This document shows, piece by piece, positions 33,853 through 60,920 of a DNA stretch of 64,000 nucleotides (within the stretch, counting starts at the first letter, position 1; every line of letters begins with the position of its first letter). Under the pieces are notes generated by a model that did not search any database, had not been told where the DNA came from, and worked only from the letters and a program-made list of their open reading frames with translations. The translations under genes and the position numbers were made by a program. This DNA comes from an uncultured Thermoleophilia bacterium (GTDB lineage Bacteria > Actinomycetota > Thermoleophilia > UBA2241), in contig CAVPCT010000003.1 in NCBI GenBank assembly GCA_963702475.1, positions 32,001 through 96,000 on the forward strand, in the 5' to 3' direction.

Positions 33853-33864
33853 CCTGTCTCCCGG

Positions 33865-34842: not shown

Positions 34843-34982
34843 GGCCCCTCCGCATGGGTCGCGTGTCGGGTAGTAGCCTACTCCTGTGCGGGGTTTTCAT
34901 CCGCGCTTGCTGGGGACACAATCCCCGCAGTGAGCTCGGCCCGCCGCCCGCGAGGTTGCGGGCAGGTGGAAGGAGGGGTCAG

Positions 34983-39962: not shown

Positions 39963-41979
39963 TCAATCGGCGCCTCCTCCACCTCCTCCGCCTCCACCTC
40001 CGCCGCCGCCGGAGAAGCCGCTTGAGGAGCCGGATGAGCCGCCGGACGAACCGCCGCCGGACGACGGCGGCGAGGCGGCGATCACGGCGGCGCTCAGACC
40101 CTGGGAGAACGAGGACACGGCGCCGACGGCGTCCCCGAAGGTGGCCGCGCCCGCCGGCGACGCGAACCAGAAGACGTCCTGGAGCCCTCCGTCCTCCAGG
40201 ACCTCCGGCACGCTCAGGCGCATCTGCGCCAGGACCTTGCGGGCGATGCCGAACACCACGGCGCACACGAGGTACTGCTCCCACAGGACGACGGACTCGG
40301 GTGGCTTCTCGTGCAGGCGGCCGAAGTCGCGCAGGTAGCGGCGGAGCGCCCGGAGCCGCGCGTACAGCTCGGCCGCGTCCCGCGAGCGGCGCCGCATCAC
40401 CCCCGAGAAGAAGGCGAGCACGACGAGGAGCGCCGCCGGCACGAGCAGCCAGGGGTCTGCCCAGGCCGCCATGGCGAACGTCACGGCCGCTGCCGCGAGG
40501 GCTGCGGCGGCGGCCTGCGCTACGTGCCTGCCGCCGCCTCTCTCGCAGGAACCCCAGCTTCTCGGCGCGTCTCTCCACGCCGCCGCGCCAGCGCTCCACG
40601 CCGGAGCGGAACTTCGCCGGGCGGCGCTTCGCCCAGGCCTGCAGCTCGGAGAGCGTGAGCGAGTCCTCCTCGGCGATGTCGCCGAACAGCAGGTCGATGA
40701 GCGGCGCCGTGAGCTCGTCCACGCGTGTCGACGTTGTCGACCTTGAGCGTCAGGCGCAGGTCCGGGCCGGCGCGCCCGGGACGCGGCGCGCGCGCGCCGC
40801 GTCCCGGGCGCGCGTCGCTCGGGGGCGATGCTCACCACCCGCCTGACGGCCAGGTCGAGCAGCGTCGCGGTCAGGTCGGCGTCGGTGACGCGGCGCCCCA
40901 TGCGCCAGAGCACGTCTGCGAGGGCCGGTGGCAGGTCAGCGGGTGGATTGCGGAGGTAGCGCTGCGGAAGCGCGGCCGGTACTCGCGGCCGTTGAGCACG
41001 AACACGACGAGCCACACGACCAGGGCGGCCACAGCTGCGGCGGCCGCGACCGGGCGGGCGATCCGCCTGTCGCGCTCCTGCTCGTGCGATCTGGGCACGG
41101 GCCGCGGCACGCTGCCCGTTCGCCTGCGCCGCGAGGACTCGCTCGGTCCTGAGGACGCTCTCCGTCACCTCGATGGGGATCTCCTCGGCTTCGGAGAGGC
41201 AGGTCCGCGGGGAAGAGCTCGCGGACTTCCACGAACGTCCGCTGGCGGCAGATCGTCGACCGCCAGCGCGACGGAGCCGTCCTGCCGAATCGTCAGCACC
41301 CCGTTCAGCGGGCCGTGGCCCCAGGCGCGTACGCCGGCGCGCGTCGCGCCGTCCGGCAGGGCGACGACGGCGCGCACCTCGCCGATAGGCACTTCCCAGC
41401 CGCGGCCGACGAGCTGCCACTCGAGCTCTCCGGCGTCCGCCCAGCGTTCGGCCGCCCGGCGGCATTCCAGCGAAAGGTGAAGTGGGCGGCCGTGTCGTCA
41501 AGGCCGGCGAACGCCTCGATACGCGTCGACCGGACCGATGAAGTCCGCGAACGCGTCGGTGACGCGGTAGTAGCCGGCCGGCCGCTCCTCCGGGGCGATG
41601 GAGGTCCACGGCGACGGGGTGGGGTCGGCGCCGGCCGGCGTCTCCCGCGGCGGTCCGGCCGCCGGCGTCCAGGCCGACGGCAGCCGCTTGAGCGGGCGGC
41701 CATCAGGCCCCGTCACGCCCAGGACCGAGATCTCGTGGCCGCTCCACGGGATGTCGCGGAACACGCGCGTGTAGTGGCCGTGGAAGGTGTAGCTGAAGCG
41801 CTCCTCGCTCGAGAGGGTCCCGTCACTGAGGACGGTGTCCCTGATACGCAGCGCATCGATGGAGTACGACTTGCGCTGCGACGGCACGATCCAGGCGAAC
41901 ACCGCGACGAGGACCGGGTGGCCACGAGGGCGACGACGACTGTCCACCCCACGCACCCGATCCTCGCCTTGCCGTCCAC
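39963..41979 (-). pseudogene. DUF2207 family membrane protein broken by many frameshifts
   Basis: Recognisable pieces spread across all three minus frames: KSYSID, ELEWQLVGRGWEVPI, AWGHGPLNG, FVEVRELFP, ATLLDLAVR, LWEQYLVCAVVFG, terminal SGGGGGGGGGGGGAD. Confidence 0.75.
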
Positions 41980-42060: not shown

Positions 42061-43308
42061 CTAGGCCGTCTGGCCCCCGGGCGGGAAGGCGAAGACAGCC
42101 TTGACCGCCCCGTTCCTGCCCTTCTGCTTGGCGGTGAGCAGAGCGTCACGGTAGTCGTCGAGGGCAAAACGGTGCGTGACCAGCTGTGGCAGCCGCAGGC
42201 GGCCACTCTCCAGCAGGCCGAAGAAGTGCTCGAAGGCGTGCGCTCTCCGCCCCTCGAACTCCTCGACGCCGAAGGCGTTGGACCCGACCAGCTCGATCTC
42301 CTTGAAGTACTGCGGCGTCCACTCGAACCTCTTCGGCTTGCTGACGCCGGTGATGACGATGCGCGCCCGTGGGCGCGCGACGCGCAGGCCGGCCTCGAGA
42401 GTCGCGGCGGAGCCGATGCTGTCGTAGACGACGTCGACGCCGCCGTGCAGCCACAGCGGCCCGAAACGCGGCTTGATGGGCCGCTCGCCGGTGATGCTCG
42501 CCACCTCACGCACGAGGTCCTCAGTGGTGCCCGAAGGTACCACCCAGCGCGCGCCCAGGGCGCGCGCCATCTCGCGCTGGTAGGGGTAGCGGGCCACGGC
42601 CACGATAGCGGTCCCGGGGTAGGCCGCGCGCAGGAAGCCGATGGCCAGCAGACCAAGGGCCCCGCAGCCGTACACCAGCGCGATGCCGCCGTCGGGCGGC
42701 GGGGCCTTGAGCACGGCGTGCATGCTCACCGAGAAGGGGTCGGCCACGACGGCCGTCTCGAAGTCCACGCCGTCGGGGATGCGGAACAGCTGCGACTCGT
42801 GTGCGGGGAGCAACGGGGCGAAGCCGCCGCCGGCGTCGCGGCAGTTGCCGGTGTGCATGGCCGGCGAGAGGCGGCCGTCGGCGAAGTGCTCGCAGAGGAA
42901 GTAGTGCCCGTCACGGCAGGCCGGGCACGGCTGGTCGATGCCTCGCGGCGCGCACGACAGCCACGGGTTGAGCGCCACCCTGTCGCCGGGCCGCACGCGC
43001 GTCACGGCCGGCCCCACCTTCTCCACCATCCCCACAGCCTCGTGGCCGGGGATGAACGGGAAGGAGATATAGCCGCTGAGGGGGTTGTCCATCTCCGCGT
43101 CGATGAAGATGAGCTTGGTGTCGCTGCCGCAGATGCCGCACAGCGCCGTGCGCACCACCGTCCAGTCGTCGAAGCAGACGACGGGCTCGGGGACCTCTTT
43201 GAGCTGGGTCGGTGCCGTCGGGCCGAGAAACGCTTTGGTGCTGACCCTGCCGGCGGCCATGGCCGACACGATGCGCGGCAGGTCGTAGTCGAAGACGACT
43301 GCCTTCAT
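42061..43308 (-). CDS. Zinc-dependent (MDR) alcohol/polyol dehydrogenase; in frame with the upstream SDR
   Basis: CGICGSD, PGHEAVG, structural-Zn C..CPAC..C, GCGALG Rossmann motif. Confidence 0.88.
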   Translation of the reverse strand: MKAVVFDYDLPRIVSAMAAGRVSTKAFLGPTAPTQLKEVPEPVVCFDDWTVVRTALCGICGSDTKLIFIDAEMDNPLSGYISFPFIPGHEAVGMVEKVGPAVTRVRPGDRVALNPWLSCAPRGIDQPCPACRDGHYFLCEHFADGRLSPAMHTGNCRDAGGGFAPLLPAHESQLFRIPDGVDFETAVVADPFSVSMHAVLKAPPPDGGIALVYGCGALGLLAIGFLRAAYPGTAIVAVARYPYQREMARALGARWVVPSGTTEDLVREVASITGERPIKPRFGPLWLHGGVDVVYDSIGSAATLEAGLRVARPRARIVITGVSKPKRFEWTPQYFKEIELVGSNAFGVEEFEGRRAHAFEHFFGLLESGRLRLPQLVTHRFALDDYRDALLTAKQKGRNGAVKAVFAFPPGGQTA

Positions 43309-44378
43309 GGTGCGGCCTGGCTCCGCGGCCGCCGGCGACGGGGCCGCCGCCGCTCCCGCGCTCCTCTTTGCCCGTCGCCCCTCCGGGCGCAGCGGGACGT
43401 ACCCGTGGGACTCGTACCACGCGATCGCCTTGGCCAGCGCCTCGCGCGCCGGCGCCGGCGCGTACCCGAGCTGGCGCATCGCCTTCGCCGAAGAGAAGGT
43501 CTCGCGGTGTGTGGAGAGACGGGCGCTGGTCGGCGTGGCGACCGGCGTATGGGAGCGGTCGAGCCGCGCCCAGGCGACGTCGGCGTACCCCCAGCCGACG
43601 GCGACGGCGTGTGGGATGCGCCGCGTGGGCGCCGGCACGCCGGAGAGCTCGGCAAGCAGCTCGAGCAGCTGCCGCAAGGTCATGCTGTCGCCGCCCAGGA
43701 TGTACCGCTCGCCGACGATGCCCTTGCGTGCGGCGAGCAGGTGGCCGGCGGCCACGTCGTCTACGTCGACGACCGTCAGCGTCGTGTCGACGTAGGCCGG
43801 CATGCGCCCGTTCAGGAAGTCGACGATCATGCGGCCGGTCGGCGTCGGCTTGTAGTCGCCGACGCCGACCGGCGCCGCCGGGTTCACGATGACGATCGGC
43901 GCGCCCTCCCCGGCGAGGCGGCGCGCCTCTTCCTCGGCGAGGTACTTGGAGCGCTTGTAGTCGCCGAGCATGTCGGCGAACGACACCGGCGTCTCCTCGT
44001 CGCCGGCCGATCCGTCCGCGGGCTGTCCCAGGGTCGCGATGGAGCTGGTGTGGACGATGCGCGCGGCTCCGGCCCTCCAGGCCGCGCGCAGCGCGTTGCG
44101 CGTGCCGTCCACATTGGTCGCGACGAACTCCTCCCAGTCGTGTCCCCAGAACGTGTACAGCGCGGCCACGTGGTAGACCTCGTCGCAGCCGTGGCAGCCG
44201 CGCTCGAGGGCCTCCGCGTCGCCAAGATCCCCGGTGACGATCTCCACGGGCAGGCCGTCGAGCAGGCGGGTGTCGCCGCCGCGCCGTACGAGGACCCGCA
44301 CCTCCGCCCCTCGGCGAGCAGGCGCCGGACCACGGCGCTGCCGACGAAGCCGTTGCCGCCTGTCACGAACGCACGCAT
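43309..44378 (-). CDS. HpnA-like NAD-dependent epimerase/reductase (extended SDR), one G missing near 44308
   Basis: MRAFVTGGNGFVG in one frame, then HVAALY, HTSS, YKRSK catalytic motif and VNPAAPVGVGDYKPTPTGRMI in the next; break in a G run (gagggg cgg). Confidence 0.8.
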
Positions 44379-45625
44379 GGGTCCTCCTCGCCGTCGATCT
44401 CCTCGAGCACGGCGGCCACGAAGTCGGCCGCGCGGGCCATGAACGCACCGCTCACGGTGTCCGGCGTGTCGTCGGGGCGGTGCCAGTGTGGCAGCGACCC
44501 TTCCCGCGGGTCATATCCGGCCAGGCACAGAGCCCGGTAGCCGAGCCGTCGCAGCCCGGTCACCTCGTCCTCCAGCGGCAGCTCGGCCGGCTCCGTGGCG
44601 AGCCCGGGGCGCCGGGCGGCGGCGCGCACGACCGTCGCGAGCAGCGCGGGTTCGGGGCGCACGTGGTCGCAGAGCCCCTCGCGTGTGAGGTAGGTGAGGC
44701 GGCCGCTGCCGAGGCCCTCGAGGCCGATGAAGTCGGCCGCACGCATGGCGGCCGGCTCCTGCGCCAGCAGGGCGACGAGGCCGGCATGGTCGGTCTCCTC
44801 GGCGCCGGTGAACGCCAGGACGACCTCGGTCCGCTCCAGCGGGCGCGCCGCCAGGCGGCGCGCGACCTCGAGCGCGACGGCGACGCTCGCGGCGTTGTCG
44901 TGAGCGCCGGGCGAGTAGGGCGCGCGCCAGTCCCGCAGGAGGGTGATGAGCATCCCTACGGCGTACGCCGCGGGCACGAGCGAGGTGTACCACAGCACGC
45001 CCGGGCGGCTCTTGCGCGTCGTTCGGGACGCGAGCCCTGTGGCGGCGCCGGCCGCGTACAGCGCGCCCGGCGCCGCCAGCATGGCCACTGTGAGCCAGGT
45101 GAGCCGTTCGAGCTGCCGGACTGCGCCCGCGCGCCACGCGAGGCGTGAGCGGTTGGTGTCGAGGTGGGCGAGCAGCACGACCCGGCCGACCGGGACGCCC
45201 GACGGCGCGAGCGTTGCGACCACGTTGCCGCTGCTCACCTTCGGCAGCAGCGGCCCCAGCGGGCTGCGCGACAGGCGGATCGCCCGCCACAGGAGCGGTG
45301 CGGACGGCAGGGCGAGGCCGGCGGCCGCCAGGCGACCTGCCCGGCCGAACGGGTACGCGGCGACGGCCAGGAGCGACAGCGCCACGCTGGCCAGCGGGAA
45401 CACGTTCTGGTCGCGGACGGCGCGGAAGGTCGTACGGGCGGCGGGCAGGCCGAGCGCGGCCAGGCGGGCGGCCACGTAGTCGCCGGCCGCCCGCTCCGCG
45501 CTGGTCCCCGTGCCCCGCGGCCCGATGCGCCCGGCGAGCTCCTCCACGTCGGCGAGCATCGACGCGGCGGGTGCGAGCTCCGCCTTGCCCGCCGTGCGTC
45601 GTACTGCGACGGCGGCAGCTCTCAC
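44363..45625 (-). CDS. Membrane-embedded M28 family metallo-amidohydrolase/peptidase
   Basis: LAHLDT, GAHDNAASVA, TGAEE, HWHRPDDT Zn-site motifs with TM insertions; GTGA overlap with the aminotransferase stop. Confidence 0.82.
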   Translation of the reverse strand: MRAAAVAVRRTAGKAELAPAASMLADVEELAGRIGPRGTGTSAERAAGDYVAARLAALGLPAARTTFRAVRDQNVFPLASVALSLLAVAAYPFGRAGRLAAAGLALPSAPLLWRAIRLSRSPLGPLLPKVSSGNVVATLAPSGVPVGRVVLLAHLDTNRSRLAWRAGAVRQLERLTWLTVAMLAAPGALYAAGAATGLASRTTRKSRPGVLWYTSLVPAAYAVGMLITLLRDWRAPYSPGAHDNAASVAVALEVARRLAARPLERTEVVLAFTGAEETDHAGLVALLAQEPAAMRAADFIGLEGLGSGRLTYLTREGLCDHVRPEPALLATVVRAAARRPGLATEPAELPLEDEVTGLRRLGYRALCLAGYDPREGSLPHWHRPDDTPDTVSGAFMARAADFVAAVLEEIDGEEDPCVRS

Positions 45626-47046
45626 TGCGACAAAGCCTGTCTGATGAGGTGCCCGCTCTGCCGCCACACCCTGCCGCGCACGCTCTCGGCCTCGGTCATC
45701 ACGGCGTCGAAGGCGGCGGCGACGGCCGTCACCTCCTCGTCGCCGATGACCAGCGGCGGCAGCAGCTTGATGATGTTCACGTCGGGGCCGCCGACCTGGG
45801 TGAGGATGTGGTGGTCACGCATCAGCGACATCACCACGAGCTGCGCGAACAGCCCCTTCTGAGCCGCCTCCGCCGCCGTCCAGGCGGCCTTGAGCGTCAG
45901 CGCCCTGGGAGGCCGGAACTCGACGCCGATCATCAGGCCCCTGCCGCGCACGTCGGCGATCATCTCGTGGCGGTCCTTGAGACGGGCGAGCTCCGCGAGC
46001 AGGCGCTCGCCCGTCTCCGCCGCCCGTTCCACCAGCCGCTCCCGGTCCAGCACGGCCAGGCTGGCCAGCCCGGCCGCCATGGCCAGCTCGTTCTCCCCGA
46101 AGGTGGTCGTGTGCACCTGGCAGCGGTCGAGCCGTCCGTACACCTTGTCGTACAGGCTCCGGCGCATCAGCAGTGCGCCGACCGGTATGAACCCCCCGCC
46201 CAGCGACTTGGCGAGCGTCACCATGTCGGGTTCCAGCCCCCAGTGCTCCAGTGAGAGAAAGCGCCCGGTGCGGCCCATGCCGGCCTGGACCTCGTCGCAG
46301 ACGAACACCGTCCCCGCCTCGCGGCAGAGGCGCTGGGCCTCCGGCAGGTAGCCGTCCGGCGGCACGTACACGCCCTTGCCCTGGATGGGTTCGACCACCA
46401 GCGCAGCCACGTCGCCCTTGCGCAGTTCCCACTCCAGAACGTCGGTGTCTCCCATCGGCACGCAGTCGAAGCCGGGCATGAGCGGTCCGAAGCCCTTGCG
46501 GAACTGCTCGCCGCCGTTGCACGACAGGGTGCCGAGCATCACTCCGTGAAACGCGTGCTGCAGGTACAGCACACGCGGTCGCCCGGTCGCCCCGCGCGCG
46601 AACTTGAGCGCCGTGTCCACCACGTCCGAGCCGTCGTTGCCGAAGAAGGCGATGTCGAGGCCGGTCGGCATCTTCGCCGCAAGTTCCTCAGCCAGCAGCC
46701 CGGCCAGAAGCGGGCAGTCCATCTCGACCATGTTGGGACGCTGCAGGGAGAGCGCCTCCTCGAGGGCAGCACGGACCACGGGGTGGTCCCGCCCGAGGTT
46801 GTACACGCTGTACCCGGCGATGAGGTCCAGGTACCGGTCGCCCGCTCGGTCCCAGAGATAGGCGCCTTCGCCGCGGACCCAGACCCTGTCGAAGCCGATG
46901 ATGGGCAGGACGCGCGCCAGAAGGGGGTTCACGTGGCGCGCGTACAGGTCGTACTGGTCGGCCTGGCGTCGTGCGATGGTGTCGGCCAGGGAGAACGTGA
47001 CGCCTCGTTCGCCCATGGGGATGCCCACGGTCCGCTCGCTATCCAT
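45622..47046 (-). CDS. Class III PLP aminotransferase, HpnO-like
   Basis: GGGAGGG RBS; ARHVNP...GFDRVWVRGEG, FHG, EPIQGKG, DEVQAGMGRTG, AKSLGGG, GLFAQLVVMSLMRDHHILTQV. Confidence 0.88.
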   Translation of the reverse strand: MDSERTVGIPMGERGVTFSLADTIARRQADQYDLYARHVNPLLARVLPIIGFDRVWVRGEGAYLWDRAGDRYLDLIAGYSVYNLGRDHPVVRAALEEALSLQRPNMVEMDCPLLAGLLAEELAAKMPTGLDIAFFGNDGSDVVDTALKFARGATGRPRVLYLQHAFHGVMLGTLSCNGGEQFRKGFGPLMPGFDCVPMGDTDVLEWELRKGDVAALVVEPIQGKGVYVPPDGYLPEAQRLCREAGTVFVCDEVQAGMGRTGRFLSLEHWGLEPDMVTLAKSLGGGFIPVGALLMRRSLYDKVYGRLDRCQVHTTTFGENELAMAAGLASLAVLDRERLVERAAETGERLLAELARLKDRHEMIADVRGRGLMIGVEFRPPRALTLKAAWTAAEAAQKGLFAQLVVMSLMRDHHILTQVGGPDVNIIKLLPPLVIGDEEVTAVAAAFDAVMTEAESVRGRVWRQSGHLIRQALSQ

Positions 47047-47084
47047 CGACCCTCCCTGCCGCATCGCCGCGCCGGTGGTCCGGC

Positions 47085-50000
47085 CTACGCCATCATGCGC
47101 CCTATCTCGCGCAGCGTCTCGAGCATGTCGGCGGGCAGCGCGGGCGCCTCTCTGCCGGCCACGTGACAGCTCCAGATGAGGTGCGACACGCGCTCGATGA
47201 CCTCGGCGGCGTTGGCCGCCTGCCGCAGGCTCGTGGCGGCCACCACCAGGCCGTGGTTCTGCAGCAGGACGGCGCTGCCGTCTCCCAGGGCGTCGCGGGC
47301 CGCCAGGGCGAGCGCCTCGCTGCCGGGCATGATGAACGGCACCCGCGGGATGTCGCCGAAGAAGGCCGCCTCGGTGGTCACCGGAGCGAACGGGATCCCG
47401 GCCATGCCGAGGATCGTCGCGTAGGCGGCGTGGGCATGCACGACGGCCTCGATCTCGGGGCGCGCCTGGTAGATCACGCAGTGCAGCAGCCGTTCGCTGG
47501 ACGGGGCCGGCGCCTCGGGGTCGGCGGCGTTGCCGTCGAGGTCCACGCGGACCATCATATCCGGCGTCAGCCGTCCTTTGAAGAGCTGGCTCGGCGTGAT
47601 CCAGAGTCTCGGCTGTGCCCGGGATACGGGCGCTCACGTTGCCGCCGGTCGCGGTCAGGAGTTCGGCGGCGAAGAGCTCCTCGGCGGTGCGCGTTACCTC
47701 CTCGCATACTGCCGCGGAGACCGCGTCGAGGCCAGGCTTCGCGCGCGCGGCGCCGGTGACGGCGACCCCGGCGAAGGCGTCGGCCGGCGCGGCCGGCACG
47801 GGCGTGGAGAGGTCGGCGCCCGTCGCCGGATCGGCGCCGCGCGCGGTGCCTGCGGCGAAGTCGATGCCGCCGACCTCCCGCCGTGCGGCGCCGTACAGCC
47901 GCACGAAGTCCTTCTGCACGCGCTGCATGCCCATGGCGGCGCGCACGTCGCCGCTGAACGACAGACGCCCCGTCATGGCCGCCTTGTTGCCGTTGAGGCG
48001 GCCGTCCAGGATGGCGTCGAGCACCTCGCCCCTGGCCTTCAGCCGGACCTTCGCCGGCTCCGGCGGCGGGCCCATGCCGGAGACGACCCGGCCGTCCCCG
48101 AAGCCGATGTGGAAGTGCAGGTCGAAGTCGCTGACCGTGTACTGCGAGACGACCGACTTTTTCGCGGCGAAGGCGAGGAGCGCCTCGTCGGTCGCGGCCC
48201 GCGTGACGAACAGGCTCAGGACGCGCTCCATCTGGGCGGCCGCGCCGGCGGCCGGCGCCGCCGTCGCGGCGAAGTCGGCCGGCCGCACGGCTGCGGCCGC
48301 GACGGGCGCTCGCACCGCCTCTCCGGACCGTCCGCAGCTTGGCTCTTCAGCCGGCCGCGCCCGCCCGAGGTCCGTCACGTCCGGGGCGGCGCCGGCCACG
48401 AGGGCCGCCACGGTGGCCGCGTCGGGCGCCTGACGCGGCACGTCCCAGGAGAACCCGGAGAGCGTCTCCGGGTTCAGAACGTTCAGGGGAGCCCGGCCGG
48501 CGGCCATGCGGCGCAGATCTGCCGCGACCGTGCGCCCCTGGTGGCCGCCGACCTCCACCGTGTTGCCGCCGACGTGGGGCGTGGCGATGACGTTCGAAAA
48601 GGCCAGGAGCGGATCGTCGGCGGCCGGCGGCTCCACCGGGAACACGTCGAACGCGGCCCCACCCAGCCGTCCTTCGCGGAGCGCCGTCAGCACTGCCGTC
48701 TGATCCACCAGACCGGCCCGGGCCGTGTTCACGAGCAGCGCGCCGGTCTTCATGAACGCGAGCCGGGACGTGTCCATCAGCCCGCGCGTGTCGTCGGTGA
48801 GCGGCGCGTGCAGGCTCACGATGTCGGCCGCTGCCAGCAGCTCGTCCAGAGGAGCCGGAGCCGCGTCAGCGAGCCTGATCTGTGCCTCGTCAACGAACGG
48901 GTCGTGGACGAGCACGCGAGCGCCGAAGGGCGCGAGGCGCCGCGCCACGGCGCGGCCCACGGCGCCGAAGCCCACGAGCCCGACCGTCCGCTCCCACAAC
49001 TCGTGTCCCAGCAGTGCCTCGTGGGCCTGCCCCATGCGGCCCATGTCGCCGGCCTCGCCGCCGGGCGTGCGCAGGAACGCATCCGCGGCCACGAGGCGGC
49101 GCGAGAGCGCCAGCATGAAGGCGACGGTGAGGTCGGCGACGGCCTCGGCGTTGCGTCCGGGCGCGTACAGGACTGGGATGCCCAGCGCCGTGCAGGCCGC
49201 CAGATCCACGTTGACGGCCCGGCCGCGGCACGACGCGACCACACGCAGGCCCGGCAAGCGGACCAGGGCCTCCGCGTCGGCGATATCCACCTCGGTGATG
49301 AAGACGTCCACGCCCTCGAGGGCCTCGACGAGGTCGTCGCCCGTGAGCAGGCGGAGCTGCTCGCGGTAGCCGGCGTGAGTGACCTCGCCGAGGGCGCGCA
49401 GCTCTGCCAGGGCGATGTCGTCGAGGTCGGCGGTGGCGAGGATGCGCAGTGACCGGCGCCTCGGCGCGACGAGCGGCCGGGCGGCGGCGTCCGCTCCGGC
49501 CGCCGCCGCGCTCTCCGGCGGCGCGACACTCGGCTCAGCTTCGCCGGCCGCCTCGGCCCTCTCCATCAGGTCGCGCAGGGCGATGCCGGCGGCCGCGCGC
49601 GTCGCCGGGACGCTGGCCCCCTGCAGACGCAGCCACTCCTCGTACAGCTCGCCGTACTTCCGCGATGACGCGGCGTCCGGAGACAGCCGCTCGGTCCTCG
49701 CCATGCGCTCCGCGCCGGCGGCCGTGCCGGCGAACACGCCGGCGCCGACGCCGGCGCAGACGGCGGCCCCCAGGGCGCTCGCCTCCGCAACCAGGGACAC
49801 GTCCACGGGCGCTCCCAGCACGTCGCAGACGATCCGGCTCCACAGGCGGGAGCGGGACATGCCTCCGGTGAGGGTGACCGGCTCGCAGGCGGCCGGAGCC
49901 GGCGCGGCGCCGGGGACGGCGAGCAGTCTCTCCGCGTTCGCGCGCACCGCGAACGCCATCCCTTCGAGCACGGCGCGGGCGAGGTCCGCGCGGCCTGCCG

Positions 50001-51144
50001 CCGCGGCGCCCTGGCCGTCGCTCCCGGCTCCGGGGCCGCCGGGCGGCGCCGAGAGGTGGCTCAGCGACAGCGTACCGATGGGCAGCGCCAGCATGTCGCG
50101 GCCGTCCATCAGCTGGGCGCCGAGAGACGAGGTGGCGCCGCGCGCCCCAGGCGGTGCGGTGGAGGCCTCCGCGAGCAGCCGGGCGACTGGGTCCGGCGCG
50201 CCGGCGCAGAGCACACCGGCGAACCACGACAGGGCGTCGCCCATGGCCCCGGCGTTGCTCTCGAGCACGCCGAGACCCGGCGCCACGTGTCGCCCGGCCC
50301 ACACCCGCGCGGTCGGGTCCACCCGGGGCGGCGCCGTCACCAGCTGAACCGGCGTGGTGCTGCCGGCCACGACCCCGACGGCGCCGGCCCGCGTTACGCC
50401 TGCGCCCAGGAGGCCGCACTGCGTGTCCGCGCCACCTACGGCCACCGGCGTGCCGGCGCGCAGGCCGAGCGCGGCCGCGGCCCGCGCCGTGAGTCCTCCG
50501 AGCGGCGAGCCGGACGGGCGTACCGGCGGCAGCAGGTGCGCGGGGAGGCCCAGCCACTCCGTGAGGTCCCGGGCCCAATCGCCGGCGACCACGTCGTACA
50601 GCAGGGTCTCCGCCGCCTGGGACGGGTCGGTGGCCGCCTCGCCGGTCAGGCGGAGTGCCAGCCAGTCGCTGAGGCTGAACGCCCACGCGGCCCGCTCCAT
50701 GAGGTCCGGCCGCTCGGTGGCCAGCCACTGCAGCCGGGCCGCGAGGAAGATGGGACCCGGCCAGTGGCCCGTCCGTGCCGCCAGGGTGTCACCGTGCTCG
50801 TCGGCCAGCAGAACGCCCTGCTCCGCGGCGCGCGCATCGTGGTTCGGGACCGCGTACAGGACGTCGCCGGCGCGGTCGGTGAGCACAGCGCTGAACCTCA
50901 TGCCGGTGACCGCAAGGCCGGCGATGTCGCCGGCGTGGGCGCCGGCCCTGGTCAGCACCTCCGCGACCACCTCCGCCACCAGGCGCCAGCACAGGGCCGT
51001 GTCGAGTTCGAATGCGAAGAGGCCGTCGGCAGGCGAGGGGCGCCATGACCGCGTCGCGGTGTCCAGGCCCCCGGCGTGCAGGTCGGCGAGCAGGCAGCGG
51101 ACGCTGCTGCCCCCGCAGTCCACGCCCAGCAAGAATCGACCCAT
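47085..51144 (-). CDS. Four-domain fusion: FGGY (LsrK/YoaC-like) kinase + D-2-hydroxyacid dehydrogenase + SCP2 lipid-binding domain + class II (FucA-like) aldolase; frameshift near 47607
   Basis: LGVDCGGSSVR, NHDARA, DPSQA, GGADTQ (FGGY, about 49600-51144); CRGRAVNVD, PGRNAEAVA, GFGAVG, NTARAG, TPHVGG (dehydrogenase, about 48470-49450); LNGNKAAMTGRLSFSGD (SCP2, about 47880-48230); GGNVSAR / LWITPS, PSSE, HAH, NHG (aldolase, 47085-47710). Confidence 0.82.
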
Positions 51145-51349
51145 GAGCCCCCCGGGCAGCCGTACGGGCAGAAGAGAGGACCAGACCACTATAGTCCGGC
51201 CCACGTGACGCGGGCCAGTGTCCGGACGCCTCTGTGCACGTCTGTCCTGCGGTGCTTCCGGTGCGTTCCGACGATGCGCATCGCGCCCACTCCCTGTAGC
51301 ATGGATTCGCCGGGGCTGGACCCGGCGCCGCACACCGGAGGCCGTCGGG

Positions 51350-52738
51350 ATGTCACTCCAGACGCGCACGCAGACGGGCCGCGCCGACGTGAGCCCTGAG
51401 GCGTCGCCGGCGCGACTCCCCGGCATGGACGCGTTCGCGGCCATGCCGCCGGACGCGCGCGGCCCACTGCTCGAGGGCGGCGTGCTCGACGCCCACCGCC
51501 TGCACTACGTCCGCAACGTCGCGTACCGCCGCGCGGTGCACGCGCGCGGCGTCGGTGAGACGACGTGCGCCGAGGCCCTCCACCTGCTGCTGCGGCCAGC
51601 ATCCCTCACCTTCAAGGGGTACGTCGACGCCGTCGGTCCGTTCCCGCAGGAGGCTCCGCGTGGCTTCCTCTCGTGGCTCGACGACCAGCTGTCCGTCCCG
51701 CTTCCGGTCGCCCGCGCCCGCGGACTGCGGCGCCGGTACCTGACCATGGAAGGCCTGCTCGCCGCCGTCGAGCGCCTGTGCGCCGGCGTCGGGCTCGAGA
51801 TGCTCACCTCGAGCGGTACGTCGGGGATCGCCAGCGTGGTGCCCCGAGATGCCGCCAGCACCGATCTCGCCGTGCGGTCGTTCTTCGCCGGCATCCGCCG
51901 CTCCTGGGGTGTCGCGCGCGGGTCGGCGATGGTCTTCGTGATGCCCGAGCGGACCAGGGTGGCCATGGCCCGCTCGGCGCGCATCGGCATCAGGCAGCTC
52001 GACTGGGCGAGCGACACGCCCGTGTTCTACACGATGCCGTTCGCGGCGACGCCGGACCTGATCCGCCTGCGCGGCGGCCGGAGCTTCTATCCCGGGCTTC
52101 GCGGTCTCGCCGAGCGGAGGATCCTGCACCCGGCCCTCGTCCGGGCCGACGCCCGGTTCGTGGCCGGCCGCTTCGTCGCGGAGACGCGGGTGCGCCTGCG
52201 CGAGCTCTGCGACGCCGGGCGGCCGCTCATGCTGCTTGGGGGCGCGGCGCAGCTCCACGCCGTGGCGCAGGCGGGGCCTCTGCGGCTGCCGCCCGGCAGC
52301 CGGGTGGCGACCGGCGGCGGCAGCAAGGAGCGGTATCCGGTCTCCCCGGCCGGCATCCGCGACGTGCTCGAGGCCGCCTTTCCGGGCACGCCCGTGGCCG
52401 ACGTGTACGGGATGGCGGAGGCGGACTGGGCGGCGTTCGAGTGCTCCGCCGGCAACCACCACCTCCCTCCCTGGATCTATGCTGTCGTCACGGACGACGC
52501 CGACCGCATCGTCGCCGGCCCGCGGGCTACGGGCATGCTGGCCTTCTACGATCCCGTCGCGGGGGGTGAGGTGTTGCCCCCCTTTTTCCAGACGGCCGAC
52601 CGCGTCACGCTGATCAACGGCGGCTCGGCCTACGAGCCCGGCCTGCGGTGCGCCTGCGGCGACGACTCCGCCTACATCGAGGGGGGCGTGTGGAGGGCGG
52701 ACCTGATGGGAGAGGCCGGCTGCGCGGCCCAGCTGTGA
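51350..52738 (+). CDS. LuxE-like acyl-protein synthetase (fatty-acid activating)
   Basis: TSSGTSG, TGGGSK, DVYGMAE, HLPPWI, GMLAFYDP, C-terminal AGCA Cys; GGAGG RBS. Confidence 0.78.
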   Translation: MSLQTRTQTGRADVSPEASPARLPGMDAFAAMPPDARGPLLEGGVLDAHRLHYVRNVAYRRAVHARGVGETTCAEALHLLLRPASLTFKGYVDAVGPFPQEAPRGFLSWLDDQLSVPLPVARARGLRRRYLTMEGLLAAVERLCAGVGLEMLTSSGTSGIASVVPRDAASTDLAVRSFFAGIRRSWGVARGSAMVFVMPERTRVAMARSARIGIRQLDWASDTPVFYTMPFAATPDLIRLRGGRSFYPGLRGLAERRILHPALVRADARFVAGRFVAETRVRLRELCDAGRPLMLLGGAAQLHAVAQAGPLRLPPGSRVATGGGSKERYPVSPAGIRDVLEAAFPGTPVADVYGMAEADWAAFECSAGNHHLPPWIYAVVTDDADRIVAGPRATGMLAFYDPVAGGEVLPPFFQTADRVTLINGGSAYEPGLRCACGDDSAYIEGGVWRADLMGEAGCAAQL

Positions 52739-52751
52739 GGGAAGGGAACCG

Positions 52752-54386
52752 GTGAACGAAGCGGTCCACGACGGCTTCTGGCTTCCACAGGGGATCCGCG
52801 ACCGGGTGGTCAGGGATGCGGACTGGGTGACCGTGCGCCTGAGCGGGGGCTCCCTTCGGGAGGAAGCGCAGGGCCACAGTGCGGCGACCGGCGACGCCGG
52901 CGCCGGCGGAGCACCGGCCGCGGCGGCTTGCGCCAACCCAGGCATCGCCGTCCGCTGGCCGCGTCTCTCCGCCTCCGGCTGGAGCGACCTCCTGGCCGCC
53001 CTCCGCGCGGCGCGCCGCGTCGGCGGGGACGAGGCGGCGGAGCGGTGGCAGGCGGCCCTGCGGCAGGTGATGTCCCGCCTGACCGCCGACCTGCCCGAAC
53101 GTCTGCCGCTGCTGTCCGCGGCCACGGGGTACGCACCCGAGATGCTCGTCGCGTCCCTGACGGGCGGCGATCTCGTCGACCCGGGCTCTCTGCGTCCGGC
53201 CCTGGACTTCCGCCCGGGATGGGGCGCTGCGTCGGCCTGGGTGCGGCACCCGTCGCTCGGCGGCCGCGTGCGCTTCTTCCCGCACGGCCTCCTCGGACGG
53301 GTGTGGACGGCTGCCGGCGGGGATGCGCCCCTCTTCCGGCCTGCTCCGCGTACCGGTCTCGCCGTGTGCTTCGCGGCCGGCAACGTGCCAGGGACCGCAC
53401 TCGTGCTGGCCCTCATGGGCAGCCTCGCGAACCACGCGGACGCGGCCGGCGCCCTGGCGCCGGCCGTGCTCGTGCGCAACAGCCGCCACGAGCCGCTGTT
53501 CACCCCCTGGGTCCTCACCGCCGTGGAGCGCGTGGACCCGGAGCTCGTCGCCGCCGTCGCGGTGACGGTGTGGGACTACGAAGACCTCACCCTGCAAGGG
53601 CGGCTCTTGCGCTCGGCCGGACTTCTGCTGGCGGCCGCCGACGACGGCACCATCGCCTCGCTCGACGCGCTGCGCGAGCGCGAAGCTCCCCGGCTGCGCT
53701 TCCACCGTCATGGACACAAGTTCAGCTTCGCGGTGCTCGGCAGGGACTGGGCGACGCACCCGGAGGCGCCTCGCCTGGCGGCCCTCGACTCCTGCTTCTG
53801 GGACCAGAACGGCTGCCTCTCCGCACGCGTGCACTTCGTCGAGGGCGACGCGCCGGCGTACGCGGAGGCGCTCGCCGTCGAGATGCGGGCGCTGGCCGCG
53901 GAACTGCCCCGCGGCGCGACGCCCGCACGCTTGACCCACCGGGCCTTCGACGGCTTCGCGGCCCTGGCCGGCGACGGCGCGGTGCGGCTTTGCTCCTCCT
54001 ACGACGACCAGTTCGCCGTCGCCCTCGACGGCCGCGCCTGGCGGCCCGAGTCGCTGCGCCGCGCTGTGAACGCCTGCCAGGGCCGCGTCGTCGTCGTGCG
54101 GCCGGTGCGCGACATAATGGACGTCCCGGTGCTGTTGGGGGCCTTGCCGCCGGGCAACCTGCAATCGCTGTGCGTTCTCGCTGCGAAGGACCGCGTCGAA
54201 CCACTGGCGGCGGCGGCCGGGGCCCGTGGCGTCACGGCGGTGCGTGCCATCGGACGCGGCGCCTTTCCGCAGCTCGCCTGGTCGTGGGACGGCTTGCTGC
54301 CGGCGGACGTCTGCTGCGTGCGTCCCGGCGGCCGCTTCACCTCGATCGAGCCCGACCTCCTCGGACCCGTTGAGGAGCGCTCGTGA
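52752..54386 (+). CDS. LuxC-like acyl-CoA/acyl-protein reductase (aldehyde-forming)
   Basis: FAAGNVPG, HGHKFSFAV, FWDQNGCLS catalytic Cys motif, WDG near the C-terminus; 13 nt after the luxE-like gene. Confidence 0.8.
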   Translation: MNEAVHDGFWLPQGIRDRVVRDADWVTVRLSGGSLREEAQGHSAATGDAGAGGAPAAAACANPGIAVRWPRLSASGWSDLLAALRAARRVGGDEAAERWQAALRQVMSRLTADLPERLPLLSAATGYAPEMLVASLTGGDLVDPGSLRPALDFRPGWGAASAWVRHPSLGGRVRFFPHGLLGRVWTAAGGDAPLFRPAPRTGLAVCFAAGNVPGTALVLALMGSLANHADAAGALAPAVLVRNSRHEPLFTPWVLTAVERVDPELVAAVAVTVWDYEDLTLQGRLLRSAGLLLAAADDGTIASLDALREREAPRLRFHRHGHKFSFAVLGRDWATHPEAPRLAALDSCFWDQNGCLSARVHFVEGDAPAYAEALAVEMRALAAELPRGATPARLTHRAFDGFAALAGDGAVRLCSSYDDQFAVALDGRAWRPESLRRAVNACQGRVVVVRPVRDIMDVPVLLGALPPGNLQSLCVLAAKDRVEPLAAAAGARGVTAVRAIGRGAFPQLAWSWDGLLPADVCCVRPGGRFTSIEPDLLGPVEERS

Positions 54387-54578
54387 GTGTCAAGGGCTGC
54401 CTGAGGACCGCTGACTGGGTGCTCCCATGCGGGCGCCCCCAACGTTTTGCCGCAGGTGGTAGCGGGTACGTCCGGGGCCTTACGTGCGCGGTGGTGGGCG
54501 GCGTCACGAGCCGTCGGCAAAGCCGTCACCGTCGGCACACGACTCCTGAAGGTGCTCTCGAACAGTGAGGAAGGAGGA

Positions 54579-55112
54579 ATGACGATGTCGAGACCTGTGC
54601 ATGCGAGCCACGCCGGAGTCCTTGCGGTCGTCATCGTGCTCGCCCTGGGAGCGGTGGGCGCAGCGTGCGGCGGGGAGGAGGAGAGCAGCAGCCCTGCACC
54701 CAGCAGCACCTCTGTGCCGTCCGCGAGCCCGAGCCCGGGCGAGTCGGCGCTGTCGGGCGACGAGGCGGAGATCGCGGCCAACTGGGAGGCCTTCTTCGAC
54801 GGGACCACGCCGGCCGACCGCAAAGTAGAGCTCGTGCAGAACGGCACGCAGTTCGCGGACGTGATCGGGGCGCGGGCGGACTCGCCCTTGTCGCAGTCGA
54901 CGACGGCGAAGGTGTCGGCGGTGACCATCACATCCGACACCGAGGCGGACGTGACGTACTCCATCCTCATGGGCGGTCAGGTCGTGCTTCCCGACCAGAC
55001 CGGACAGGCCATCCGGGAGAACGGCCTGTGGAAGGTCGGAGCCGAGAGCTTCCAGGCGCTTCTCGCGCTCGAGGGAGCGTCCGGCGCCCCCTCACCTGGC
55101 GCGTCGCCCTGA
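54579..55112 (+). CDS. Lipoprotein, possibly MTB12/Cfp2-like low-molecular-weight antigen family
   Basis: AAGGAGG RBS; GAAC lipobox, Ser/Pro linker, FFDGTTPADRKVELVQNG, GLWKVG. Confidence 0.6.
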   Translation: MTMSRPVHASHAGVLAVVIVLALGAVGAACGGEEESSSPAPSSTSVPSASPSPGESALSGDEAEIAANWEAFFDGTTPADRKVELVQNGTQFADVIGARADSPLSQSTTAKVSAVTITSDTEADVTYSILMGGQVVLPDQTGQAIRENGLWKVGAESFQALLALEGASGAPSPGASP

Positions 55113-55175: not shown

Positions 55176-56789
55176 ATGGCTGCGCATGAGGGTCTGATCC
55201 AGACCTACGGGGGGGTGCGAGGGCGCGCCCTCATGGTCGTGTGCGGGGTCCTGTTCCTCACCTTCCTGGACACGACCATCGTCAGCGTCGCACTCGCCGA
55301 CATGCAGACGACGCTGCACGCCGGCGTTCAGTCCCTGCAGTGGGTGGTCAACGCTTACGCCCTGGTCTTCGCAGGGCTCATGCTCGGCATGGGCACCGTG
55401 GGCGACCGGTTCGGGCGCAAGAGGGTGATGCTGGCCGGAGTGGGCGTCTTCACCCTGGGCTCGGTGCTCGGCGCGGTCGCGCCGAACGTGGAGCTCGTCA
55501 TCGCCTCGCGCGCGATCATGGGCGTGGGGGCGGCGGCGTGCGAGCCGGGTACCCTGTCGATCATCCGCCACCTCTATCCCGAGTCCGGCCCACGCGCCCG
55601 GGCGCTCGGGGCGTGGGCGGCCGTCTCCGGTCTGGCGCTCGCCCTCGGCCCGGTGATCGGGGGCGTCCTCGTGAGCCTCGGGGGCTGGCGCTACGTGTTC
55701 TGGTTCAACGTCGCCGCAGGGGCGGCAGCGCTTGTGGCCGCGTTCCTGGCGGTGCCGGAGAGCGCCGACCCGCAGAAAGCGAAGTTCGACGTCGCCGGCT
55801 TCGTCCTGGGGCCGCTGGCCGTGGGCGCCGCGATCTTCGCCGTCATCCTCGGCGAGACCCGCGGCTACTTCTCCACGGGCATCCTGGGGCTCTTCGGCCT
55901 CAGCGTCGTCCTGTTCGCTGCGTTCGTCCTCGTCGAACTGCGGAGCCCGGCGCCGACGCTCGACCTGGACTACTTCCGCAAGCCAGGGTTCTCGGGAGCG
56001 ATGGTCGTCGCATTCGCCGCGTACTTCGGCATCTTCTCCATCTTCTTCTTCACGGCGCTGTACCTGCAGGTCGTCACAGGCTACTCCGGCTACCGCGTGG
56101 CCCTGCTGTTCCTGCCCATGGCGGTCGCCATGATCCTGTCGTCGGTGTTCGCGGGGAGGTGGGTCGGGCGCGCCGGACCGCGCGTGCCCATGACGATCGG
56201 CTGTGTCGCCGCTGGGGCAGGCATCCTGCTCACCGAGCTCGCGCTGCTGGGCGAGCCGTCGTTCGCCGGGCTGGCCCTCTCGCTCACGCTCGCCGGCCTG
56301 GGCTTCGGGCTGGCCGTCGTCCCCGTGACCTCTGTGGCGCTGAGCGAGGTCCCGGCCGAACACTCGGGCATGGCTGCATCGGCGACGAGCACCAGTCGGG
56401 AGATGGGCTCGGTGGTCGGGGTCGCCGTCCTCGGGGCCATCGTCAACGGGTATCTCGTGGTCGACCTGGCCGCACGCCTCACGGCGCTGGGCGTGCCCCC
56501 GGCGTTCCAGAAGATCGTCAGCGACGCGATCCTGACGGGGCGGATGCCGAGCAGCAGCAGCGCCGCTGAAGCCGAGGCCGCATACGGGCCGCTGGTCATC
56601 AAGGTCATGGACGCGGCGTACGGCGCGTTCCACACGGGGCTCAACGTGTCGCTCACTGTGTCCGGCGTCGCCATCCTGGCATCCGGTCTTGTCGCGTGGT
56701 TCGCCGTGGGGCGCGCTCCCTCGTCAGTCACGGAACCGTTCGACGACGCCGACGGCGACTCCAGTGAGGCCGAGACCGCCGGGGCTTGA
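55176..56789 (+). CDS. MFS drug:H+ antiporter (DHA2, EmrB/QacA family)
   Basis: LDTTIVSVAL, WVVNAY, GDRFGRKR motif A, GPVIGG, WRYVFWFNV; about 14 TM. Confidence 0.92.
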   Translation: MAAHEGLIQTYGGVRGRALMVVCGVLFLTFLDTTIVSVALADMQTTLHAGVQSLQWVVNAYALVFAGLMLGMGTVGDRFGRKRVMLAGVGVFTLGSVLGAVAPNVELVIASRAIMGVGAAACEPGTLSIIRHLYPESGPRARALGAWAAVSGLALALGPVIGGVLVSLGGWRYVFWFNVAAGAAALVAAFLAVPESADPQKAKFDVAGFVLGPLAVGAAIFAVILGETRGYFSTGILGLFGLSVVLFAAFVLVELRSPAPTLDLDYFRKPGFSGAMVVAFAAYFGIFSIFFFTALYLQVVTGYSGYRVALLFLPMAVAMILSSVFAGRWVGRAGPRVPMTIGCVAAGAGILLTELALLGEPSFAGLALSLTLAGLGFGLAVVPVTSVALSEVPAEHSGMAASATSTSREMGSVVGVAVLGAIVNGYLVVDLAARLTALGVPPAFQKIVSDAILTGRMPSSSSAAEAEAAYGPLVIKVMDAAYGAFHTGLNVSLTVSGVAILASGLVAWFAVGRAPSSVTEPFDDADGDSSEAETAGA

Positions 56790-60784: not shown

Positions 60785-60920
60785 CAGAAGACGTGTGAGA
60801 GGCGGCGCGGCGGTGACGGCGGGGCGCCGCGCCTTGCCATTCACCGCCGCTGCGAGACAATGGGCCGGCCGTTGAAGGGTCGCGTCGTCCGCGGCGGGAG
60901 CGACCCGGGAGGGACGTGGG

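Follow-up and report, generated by a model that had tools for sequence, protein, structure and literature searches.

Gene content of the locus

We analyzed a 64,000-nucleotide stretch of DNA from an uncultured Thermoleophilia bacterium of sediment and soil (positions 32,001 to 96,000 of contig CAVPCT010000003.1; the whole stretch is hereafter called the window), in which a minus-strand operon and a plus-strand gene pair diverge from a short intergenic region. The operon encodes a four-domain fusion protein (FGGY kinase, D-2-hydroxyacid dehydrogenase (DH), SCP2, and class II aldolase), a class III aminotransferase (AT), an M28 metallopeptidase or amidase, and an extended short-chain dehydrogenase/reductase (SDR) joined to a Zn-dependent alcohol dehydrogenase (Zn-ADH), which NCBIfam assigns to the threonine dehydrogenase type. 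The divergent pair encodes LuxE-like and LuxC-like proteins. The gene map (Table 1) was built from a third-position G+C (GC3) frame plot combined with Pfam and NCBIfam searches; long spurious open reading frames (ORFs) are abundant in the window because of its G+C content of 68-76%. The genome comprises 4.3 Mb on 9 contigs, with a completeness of 93.8% and a contamination of 6.5%.

By Pfam, NCBIfam, and the GC3 frame plot, all genes named in a preliminary description of this DNA are present where it had placed them, and the 205-bp gap that it reported between the divergent operons is exact for starts at 51144 and 51350. Its separate SDR and Zn-ADH genes turned out to be a single ORF of 795 aa, and the two are fused in the relative L012 as well. 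All four domain types of the fusion that it described are present, but the aldolase domain lies out of frame in this assembly (see below).

A conserved operon core in two phyla

The core consisting of AT, M28, SDR, kinase, DH, SCP2, and aldolase is newly recognized here. We found it in fused and unfused forms among Thermoleophilia and Anaerolineae; it is conserved across two phyla. In the Thermoleophilia locus L028, AT, M28, and SDR adjoin the fusion, together with an alcohol dehydrogenase, LuxE, and LuxC, and in L012 the AT and the fused SDR-ADH adjoin it, with M28 not matched. Beside the fusion of the Anaerolineae loci L002 and L007, the AT (67% identity), M28 (56-57%), and SDR (61%) resemble those of the window; M28 orthologues in the same operon elsewhere are 51-64% identical.

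To describe the spread of the core, we used a class sample of 301 genomes from the class of the genome that holds L007 and took as close M28 orthologues those with at least 62% identity, or 76% over a fragment. Such orthologues occur in 10 of the 301 genomes, and all 5 of the 10 with long enough contigs hold AT, SDR, kinase, DH, SCP2, and aldolase. The four domains are fused in three of these (G061, G238, and G261), and in G080 and G317 they are separate genes in another order, which in G080 reads GntR, SCP2, DH, kinase, aldolase, aldehyde:ferredoxin oxidoreductase (AOR), AT, M28, an unidentified gene, and SDR. The unfused form keeps SCP2 as a separate gene of 129 aa. In G196 and G088, AT-M28-SDR was found on contigs of 4-5 kb.

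In its Anaerolineae versions, the operon begins with a GntR/UTRA regulator in L007, L185, and L189, includes or adjoins AOR in L002, L007, L184, and L185, and is followed by MFS_2 and MFS_1 transporters in L007. The regulator, AOR, and the transporters together give the Anaerolineae operon a catabolic look.

The M28 protein has hydrophobic, membrane-like inserts in its sequence and hydropathy profile, as the label "membrane M28" had implied, and its only PDB match is the aminopeptidase YwaD (E 1e-6). M28 proteins with similar inserts are common: matches with E <= 1e-30 occur in 88 of the 301 class-sample genomes, mostly at 31-40% identity and outside the operon, and in G201 and L113 an M28 paralog with such inserts directly follows LuxE-LuxC. 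At L189 (G238:C55, 3839-4750) an alpha/beta hydrolase lies between M28 and SDR, possibly an esterase or lactonase that acts on a different variant of the substrate. L210 (G526:C7, 7612-10259) carries an aminotransferase 48% identical to that of the window and an HpnA-like SDR (38%). Kinase, aldolase, M28, and squalene-hopene cyclase (SHC) are all missing from the surroundings of this pair, which may be a reduced front end.

Domains and distribution of the fusion protein

The kinase domain matched Pfam FGGY_N with 137.8 bits and FGGY_C with 52.2 bits, had LsrK (5YA0) as its best PDB match, and stayed below every NCBIfam equivalog cut-off. The catalytic/NAD-binding Pfam domains of the DH scored 180.8 and 53.3 bits, and its nearest PDB relatives, PHGDH (1YGY/3DDN) and McyI, point to a PHGDH-like enzyme. 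Among solved structures, FucA (4C24/4C25, 107 bits) and DrdA (6BTD, 99.6 bits) came closest to the aldolase domain, far ahead of AraD (44 bits) and NovR (45 bits), and the PSSE, HAH, and NHG motifs of the domain aligned with those of 4C24/4C25; the aligned His triad and Glu presumably have the catalytic and metal-binding roles given in the FucA literature. The domain is thus predicted to be a dihydroxyacetone phosphate (DHAP)-dependent aldolase of the FucA/DrdA type rather than an AraD or a decarboxylase, which agrees with its earlier label as FucA-type. NCBIfam scores of AraD-like, OtnC-like, and FucA-like models were similar for this domain.

A database search returned 566 proteins that match the fusion at E <= 1e-3. 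All four domain types are present in 117 of the 120 best homologues, and our literature search found no relevant description of a fusion of FGGY, SCP2, and class II aldolase. Genome scans located 60 and 44 fusion loci, 32 of the 44 being new, in Anaerolineae (including Bellilinea caldifistulae), Myxococcota and other Deltaproteobacteria-type metagenome-assembled genomes (MAGs), Thermoleophilia, Spirochaetales, the Mycobacterium kansasii complex, and M. simiae. Within the window's own genus the fusion is present in 2 of 37 genomes (G000 counted), and a first screen, stricter than usual, detected it in 0 of 24 genomes from elsewhere in the class. Most fusion loci hold no aminotransferase.

The commonest real neighbors of the fusion, each at no more than 7 of 60 loci, were SDR, SorC regulator, acyl-CoA dehydrogenase, AMP-ligase, AOR, DUF1329, BNR, and RND-like proteins. 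The commonest families in a Pfam census of 112 immediate neighbors at 61 loci were BNR/Sortilin (6), MarR_2 (6), AMP-binding (5), LolA-like (5), SorC sugar-binding (4), Aldedh (4), TetR (4), and P450 (3). We counted acyl-CoA ligases, acyl-CoA dehydrogenases, aldehyde dehydrogenases (ALDH), AOR, P450, TetR, and the DUF1329/BNR/RND genes in favor of a lipid substrate. At the Mycobacterium loci, AT, M28, and LuxC are all missing, and what is found instead are ALDH-like genes and distant SDRs. In M. ostraviense, M. innocens, and M. persicum (L078-L080) a 573-aa ALDH-like gene follows the fusion, and at the one locus annotated, L078 of M. ostraviense, two extended SDRs flank it, with HpnA as best NCBIfam match, far below the cut-off (130-153 bits).

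Hopanoid-type enzymes in genomes of non-producers

The SDR had been called HpnA-like, and it passes the cut-off of the NCBIfam HpnA model (TIGR03466, 367.65 bits) with 382-385 bits over profile positions 22-327; the L007 and L185 proteins score 431 and 446 bits, both over the full length. In a phylum sample of 201 genomes, five (G511, G420, G042, G052, and G047) have an HpnA-profile match directly beside SHC, and these HpnA genes are 42-47% identical to the window's SDR. SHC itself occurs in 18 of the 201 genomes, including one unpublished genome (G448).

An excerpt of PMC12324291 indicates that no curated HpnO model exists, and the identity of the aminotransferase was therefore tested by gene position. 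In 4 of 4 genomes holding both SHC and HpnH, all of one genus, the best match to the window's AT (51-53% identity, 472-510 bits; next paralogs <=200 bits) follows HpnH (about 537 bits) at a distance of 89 bp to 3.5 kb. This bears out the earlier description of the enzyme as HpnO-like: by position and similarity it is an HpnO-type aminotransferase, with putative action on ribosylhopane/aminotriol. Its best named NCBIfam match is the C-terminal half of PigE (417 bits, cut-off 850), its PDB match is 4PPM (306 bits), and its relatives act on terminal aldehydes or amines, not on 2-ketones.

The window's SDR does not belong to a hopanoid (shc/hpnH) cluster of a producer. The absence of SHC, noted earlier for the window, extends to the whole 4.3-Mb genome (no PF13243 match), which also has no HpnH above the cut-off. 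Of the 301 class-sample genomes, 11 have SHC, but none of the 16 with the fusion and none of the 10 with the core is among them. Judged by gene content, the core carriers examined are not hopanoid producers. As described in part of PMC12583986, HpnO converts ribosylhopane to aminobacteriohopanetriol, and both the function of HpnA and the enzyme that leads from ribosylhopane to bacteriohopanetetrol are unassigned in the literature.

Proposed breakdown of amino-polyol lipids

We consider that the minus-strand operon probably clips DHAP off some amino-polyol lipid. More tentatively, and short of calling it probable, we propose that it catabolizes lipids of the (amino)bacteriohopanepolyol type to DHAP and a lipid aldehyde; catabolism of bacteriohopanepolyol side chains had been listed as an alternative in the preliminary description, and it is the one that fits best. 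The operon would carry out tail-clipping of an environmental amino or N-acyl polyol lipid, the likeliest substrates being C35 bacteriohopanepolyols. The side chain of a C35 hopanoid is a 5-substituted 5-deoxyribose unit, and the whole route would be a counterpart of the 5-deoxyribose "DHAP shunt" for a lipid-borne substrate; the logic proposed is that of known DHAP-releasing routes, applied here to a lipid.

The steps are derived from family chemistry. The membrane-embedded M28 amidase would take off the N-acyl group, and the HpnO-type AT, running in the reverse direction of HpnO, would convert the terminal C35 amine to an aldehyde (ribosylhopane), which the HpnA-type SDR with its fused Zn-ADH may reduce to the tetrol. 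The FGGY kinase would then phosphorylate the terminal CH2OH (C35), and the PHGDH-like DH would oxidize the neighboring CHOH (C34) to a ketone. Cleavage of the C32-C33 bond by the FucA/DrdA-type aldolase would release DHAP and a lipid aldehyde (C32 hopanal in the case of bacteriohopanetetrol), and the C32 aldehyde would be oxidized by AOR or ALDH. Throughout, SCP2 may hold the greasy polycyclic part and carry it between active sites, which would account for the fusion as well as for the separate SCP2 gene of the unfused forms. LuxE and LuxC would stand at the acid/aldehyde node, a place held by AOR in the operons of anaerobes.

Several points weigh against hopanoids as the substrate. The assignment rests on family likeness, so that every step is deduced and the hopanoid is putative; the role of M28, in particular, is taken from its family and hydropathy. 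No general neighbor that would name the substrate was found at more than 7 of the 60 fusion loci in all-against-all clustering, and the RND-like neighbors, tested as HpnN, were negative. SCP2 is at times merely structural in other proteins. The gain is small, namely three carbons and one nitrogen per large lipid. LuxE/LuxC, which works one way from acid to aldehyde, is superfluous in a simple catabolic scheme, and its divergent arrangement with the operon (below) was also counted on this side.

The likeness to HpnA and HpnO would equally fit a soluble, ribose-derived amino-alditol. The operon might break down a soluble compound (an amino-alditol, a polyol, or a sugar acid) along the lines of the fucose, 5-deoxyribose, or tetronate routes, in which case SCP2 would have a structural role. 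SorC sugar-binding regulators and sugar-type MFS genes beside the fusion at Bellilinea-type loci fit such a substrate and speak against the hopanoid. MFS_2 in L007, the similar AraD-like, OtnC-like, and FucA-like NCBIfam scores, and the precedent of dehydrogenase-kinase-decarboxylase routes (PMC12994016, seen in part) also favor a soluble substrate. However, SCP2 is retained in nearly all of the best homologues and persists as a gene of its own where the domains are unfused, M28 has membrane-like inserts, lipid-type genes neighbor the fusion elsewhere, and the aldolase carries FucA/DrdA motifs and lies far above AraD or NovR. We regard a soluble substrate as unlikely.

In ceramide or phytosphingosine catabolism, M28 would be a ceramidase, AT would yield a 2-ketone, the kinase would phosphorylate C1, and the aldolase would release DHAP and a long-chain aldehyde. 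Ceramides had been proposed earlier as possible substrates, and the chemistry suits an N-acyl 2-amino-1,3,4-triol; a membrane M28, SCP2, and aldehyde-oxidizing neighbors are in place, and the Zn-ADH type is also favorable. This route, however, leaves the conserved DH domain and the HpnA-type SDR idle, and the nearest relatives of AT and SDR lie in hopanoid clusters. The many fusions without an aminotransferase count against it too, and our literature search found no relevant phytosphingosine-catabolism pathway of such kind. It persists as a rival that we judge quite unlikely.

The LuxE/LuxC pair and its relation to the operon

The LuxE-like protein scored 22.3 bits with Pfam PF04443, below the gathering score of 24.9, and its only PDB match is LuxE 7XC6 (E 1e-5). 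It has an adenylating fold without the ANL C-terminal subdomain and ends in a short Cys motif, the trait by which we recognized the family, as in the role of the C-terminal Cys364 of LuxE (PMC9157457, seen in part). In its family cluster, 50 of 55 ORFs have a Cys among their 12 C-terminal residues, nearly always as E[AS]GC, and the exceptions are fragments. The LuxC-like protein scored 91 bits with PF05893 (cut-off 21), and its Cys355 is invariant in 18 aligned sequences. A PDB search with it gave no match, and it scored only 26 bits with the NCBIfam LuxC equivalog, compared with a cut-off of 750, so that it is not an orthologue. No luxA/B luciferase (PF00296) or luxD (PF02273) was found in the whole genome; the pair is therefore not a lux operon, and the absence of these genes had been noted correctly before. 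The reading of LuxE and LuxC as an acid-to-aldehyde pair is borne out by these hallmarks: we take them to be a genuine two-protein carboxylate reductase, with activity at the substrate level predicted.

A single-protein scan for LuxC relatives gave 2 loci, and an alignment-based search gave 55. LuxE directly precedes LuxC at 51 of the 55 loci, and the conserved partners of the pair are FHA-ABC transporters (18 loci), Ser/Thr kinases (13), 4HBT thioesterases (9), and B12 radical-SAM enzymes (9), the first two of which are present in the window. LuxE/LuxC is thus part of a separate conserved module that also comprises an FHA-ABC exporter and Ser/Thr kinases.

The fusion adjoins LuxC at 3 of the 55 loci (L110, L111, and L135) in addition to the window. 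This juxtaposition occurs in two arrangements, at 41-71% identity: three Thermoleophilia (the window, L110, and L111) have LuxE/LuxC and the operon in divergent orientation, and in L135 the pair converges on the fusion alone. In L112 a free dehydrogenase follows LuxC, and L113 holds distant M28-like and aldolase-like genes. Among the 301 class-sample genomes, 16 hold the fusion (3 of them by aldolase-only fragments of 73-90% identity), 9 hold LuxC, and none holds both; the two Anaerolineae genomes searched, G061 and G062, hold the operon and no LuxC. The co-occurrence in other genomes on which the preliminary description had made its proposal depend is therefore largely wanting, with 52 of 55 LuxC loci lacking the fusion, but it is not wholly absent, given L110, L111, L135, and some MAGs that, judged by record names, hold fusion and LuxC on separate contigs. 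A true coupling of LuxE/LuxC to the minus-strand operon appears somewhat doubtful. The pair might supply the aldehyde node from a substrate with a carboxyl group, act in an export pathway, or drive synthesis.

The window may simply hold two unrelated adjacent modules, LuxE/LuxC serving an envelope-lipid or fatty-amine/alcohol pathway and the operon something else. The partners that the pair has of its own agree with this, as does the acid-aldehyde-amine precedent of TabE/TabA (bioRxiv 10.1101/2025.08.11.669332, seen in part); the recurrence of the juxtaposition and the equivalent place of AOR inside the operons of anaerobes argue against it. We hold this separation to be possible but doubtful.

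Synthesis had been the favored proposal of the preliminary description. In the version weighed here, a fatty aldehyde from LuxE/LuxC would be joined to DHAP by the aldolase, and the ketone transaminated or reduced, giving a phytosphingosine-like or amino-tetrol lipid that is made without serine palmitoyltransferase and exported. LuxE/LuxC run only from acid to aldehyde (PMC9157457, seen in part), the aldol reaction is reversible with synthesis favored (according to part of PMC6079011), an efflux MFS, a lipoprotein, and the FHA-ABC exporter lie downstream, and the reversible AOR holds the equivalent place in anaerobes; the divergent and convergent arrangements also suit such a route. Yet a sphingoid-base synthesis is not favored, because LuxE/LuxC is a module of its own that usually occurs without the fusion, as the loci and class-sample genomes above demonstrate. 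In addition, the kinase and M28 would have no task, GntR regulators and uptake-type transporters accompany the operon, and the relatives of AT use terminal aldehydes rather than 2-ketones. We consider this synthesis very unlikely. Improbable to the same degree is that only the Thermoleophilia version coupled to LuxE/LuxC is synthetic: a fatty or hopanoic acid would be reduced to the aldehyde, joined to DHAP, reduced, and aminated by the HpnO-type AT to a 1-amino-2,3,4-triol lipid, a hopanoid-free mimic of aminobacteriohopanetriol, exported by FHA-ABC under Ser/Thr kinase control. If true, it would represent a new membrane-lipid class and a new way of building a polyol head group.

Two frame breaks in the assembly

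Within the aldolase domain the reading frame shifts between ..GGNVSARIPGTAE and LWITPSQ.., and the cause is one extra base at 47607. The homologues P0003 (1344 aa) and P0117 (Mycobacterium kansasii, 1286 aa) are uninterrupted at this point. In the SDR, HpnA-profile positions 1-26 fall in another frame than the remainder, displacing the Rossmann start, because the C-run at 44307-44310 is one base short. We aligned Logan contigs from 4 runs (3 studies), 90-99% alike, to the stretch; one run possibly stems from the same sample as the window. Contigs of all 4 runs have an additional C after 44306, and the sole contig spanning 47607 (run X2, depth 3.7) lacks the extra base. Correcting either break restores the reading frame exactly as predicted. 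Since independent Logan contigs are free of the defects, both breaks are most likely assembly errors or private to the strain.

In P0001 (84% identical), P0002 (71%), and genome G020, the aldolase is also out of frame or cut off, each time elsewhere in the gene. A programmed frameshift was set aside on account of these differing positions, and a pseudogene was dropped as an explanation given the short-read contigs without defects. The two single-base defects, one homopolymeric and one not, lie within 3.3 kb, and gene calls elsewhere in the 9-contig genome may suffer too.

Comparison with known systems

In the DHAP shunt, DrdK, DrdI, and DrdA convert 5-deoxyribose to DHAP and acetaldehyde, DrdA cleaving 5-deoxyribulose 1-phosphate (PMC6079011, seen in part). 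The window's cluster shares with this shunt and with the fucose/rhamnose routes (FucK/RhaB with FucA/RhaD) a terminal phosphorylation, a 2-ketone, and a class II aldolase that yields DHAP and an aldehyde, and its aldolase has DrdA (6BTD) and FucA as closest relatives of known structure. It differs in that the ketone would come from a PHGDH-like dehydrogenase acting on a polyol phosphate rather than from an isomerase, in that the kinase is an LsrK-like FGGY rather than MtnK-like, in the fusion of its parts with SCP2, and in the front end of deacylase, aminotransferase, and SDR with a presumed lipid substrate. The cluster works like the DHAP shunt and is not a member of it, having neither an MtnK-type kinase nor an MtnA-type isomerase.

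With hopanoid side-chain biosynthesis (HpnH, HpnG, HpnO, HpnA), the cluster has in common an AT of the positional-orthologue type of HpnO and an SDR that passes the HpnA model. In contrast, the carriers examined lack SHC or HpnH, the genes sit with a kinase, an aldolase, and an amidase (plus a regulator in Anaerolineae), and the direction is presumably the reverse.

The tetronate and sugar-acid routes (Ltn3D-3OtnK-3OtnC and LtnD-OtnI-OtnK-OtnC) likewise combine a dehydrogenase, a kinase, and an enzyme of the class II aldolase fold to give a triose or ketose phosphate (PMC12994016, seen in part), but their kinases and dehydrogenases are from other families, the last enzyme is a decarboxylase, and SCP2, aminotransferase, and amidase are missing. 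The PigE/TabA-type lipid aldehyde transaminases resemble the window's AT through the aminotransferase half of PigE, its best named NCBIfam and PDB match, whereas the window's protein stays below the PigE cut-off, has no reductase half, and lies in another context.

As in LuxCDE of luminous bacteria, the LuxE-like and LuxC-like genes are adjacent, with a C-terminal Cys motif of LuxE in place of the ANL C-terminal subdomain and a catalytic-type Cys in LuxC (PMC9157457, seen in part). Unlike them, the window's pair is very remote (LuxE 22 bits in Pfam, LuxC without PDB match), about 90-170 residues longer, devoid of LuxD or LuxAB, and partnered by FHA-ABC and Ser/Thr kinases.

Other features of the window

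The coordinates of the features are compiled in Table 1. The protein kinase directly 3' of the triple-FHA ABC-2 transporter scored 162 bits with Pkinase and 70 bits with TIR_2; a TIR domain on such a kinase is unusual and might signal via NAD cleavage. Directly downstream of the SDR-ADH gene, a 152-aa minus-strand ORF (41498-41956) with coding-type G+C3 and no NCBIfam match may be the last gene of the operon. At 32644-36533, a MoxR-type AAA ATPase and a DUF58 protein are followed by a DUF2252 protein, all unrelated to the finding.

Table 1 Features of the divergent locus and its plus-strand flank (positions in the window).
Feature	Position	Strand	Basis
HpnA-family extended SDR fused to Zn-dependent polyol-type alcohol dehydrogenase	42061..44378	-	Start overlaps M28 stop; Pfam, NCBIfam
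C-run, one base short in assembly	44307..44310		Extra C after 44306 in contigs of 4/4 runs
M28 metallopeptidase/amidase, hydrophobic membrane-like inserts between metal-binding motifs	44363..45559	-	Pfam; sequence and hydropathy
Class III (omega) aminotransferase, HpnO-type	45622..47046	-	Pfam, NCBIfam, PDB, position of best match in SHC+/HpnH+ genomes
Four-domain gene: FGGY (LsrK-like) kinase, D-2-hydroxyacid (PHGDH-like) dehydrogenase, SCP2, FucA/DrdA-type class II aldolase	47085..51144 (ATG 51144, stop 47085)	-	Pfam FGGY_N/FGGY_C, 2-Hacid_dh, SCP2, Aldolase_II; frame plot; in-frame homologues P0003, P0117; PDB
Extra base inside aldolase domain, shifts frame	47607		Absent from sole Logan contig covering 47607 (X2)
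Divergent intergenic region, 205 bp	51145..51349		Exact for starts 51144 and 51350
LuxE-like acyl-protein synthetase, C-terminal ..EAGCAAQL motif	51350..52738 (ATG 51350)	+	Pfam LuxE below cut-off; PDB 7XC6
LuxC-like acyl reductase, invariant Cys in WDQNGCLS	52752..54386	+	Pfam LuxC; alignment
WKL-family lipoprotein-like ORF, signal-anchor-like stretch	54447..55112	+	NCBIfam 43.6 bits, below cut-off; sequence
DHA2-family MFS efflux permease	55176..56789	+	NCBIfam
Triple-FHA ABC-2 transporter	58004..60784	+	Commonest conserved neighbor of LuxE/LuxC pair, 18/55 loci
Ser/Thr protein kinase with TIR domain	60876..63335	+	Ser/Thr kinases neighbor LuxE/LuxC in 13/55 loci

Implications

Bacteriohopanepolyols are among the most abundant lipids of soils and sediments, and their shortened products, C32 hopanoic acids and hopanols, serve as standard markers in geochemistry. 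Our literature searches (hopanoid breakdown, catabolism, aldolase) found no described enzyme route for removal of the hopanoid side chain. If the proposed breakdown of bacteriohopanepolyols is true, it would be the first pathway for this removal; it would predict that the C32-C33 bond is cut and that a C32 aldehyde or acid is the product, and it would name Anaerolineae, Thermoleophilia, Myxococcota, and others as likely agents. It would also suggest the interconversion of ribosylhopane and tetrol as the long-missing function of HpnA, and would give a role to a widespread 1300-residue fusion protein whose homologues number in the hundreds. Four or five recombinant enzymes would suffice for a direct test of the hypothesis, which bears on a geochemical question of long standing.

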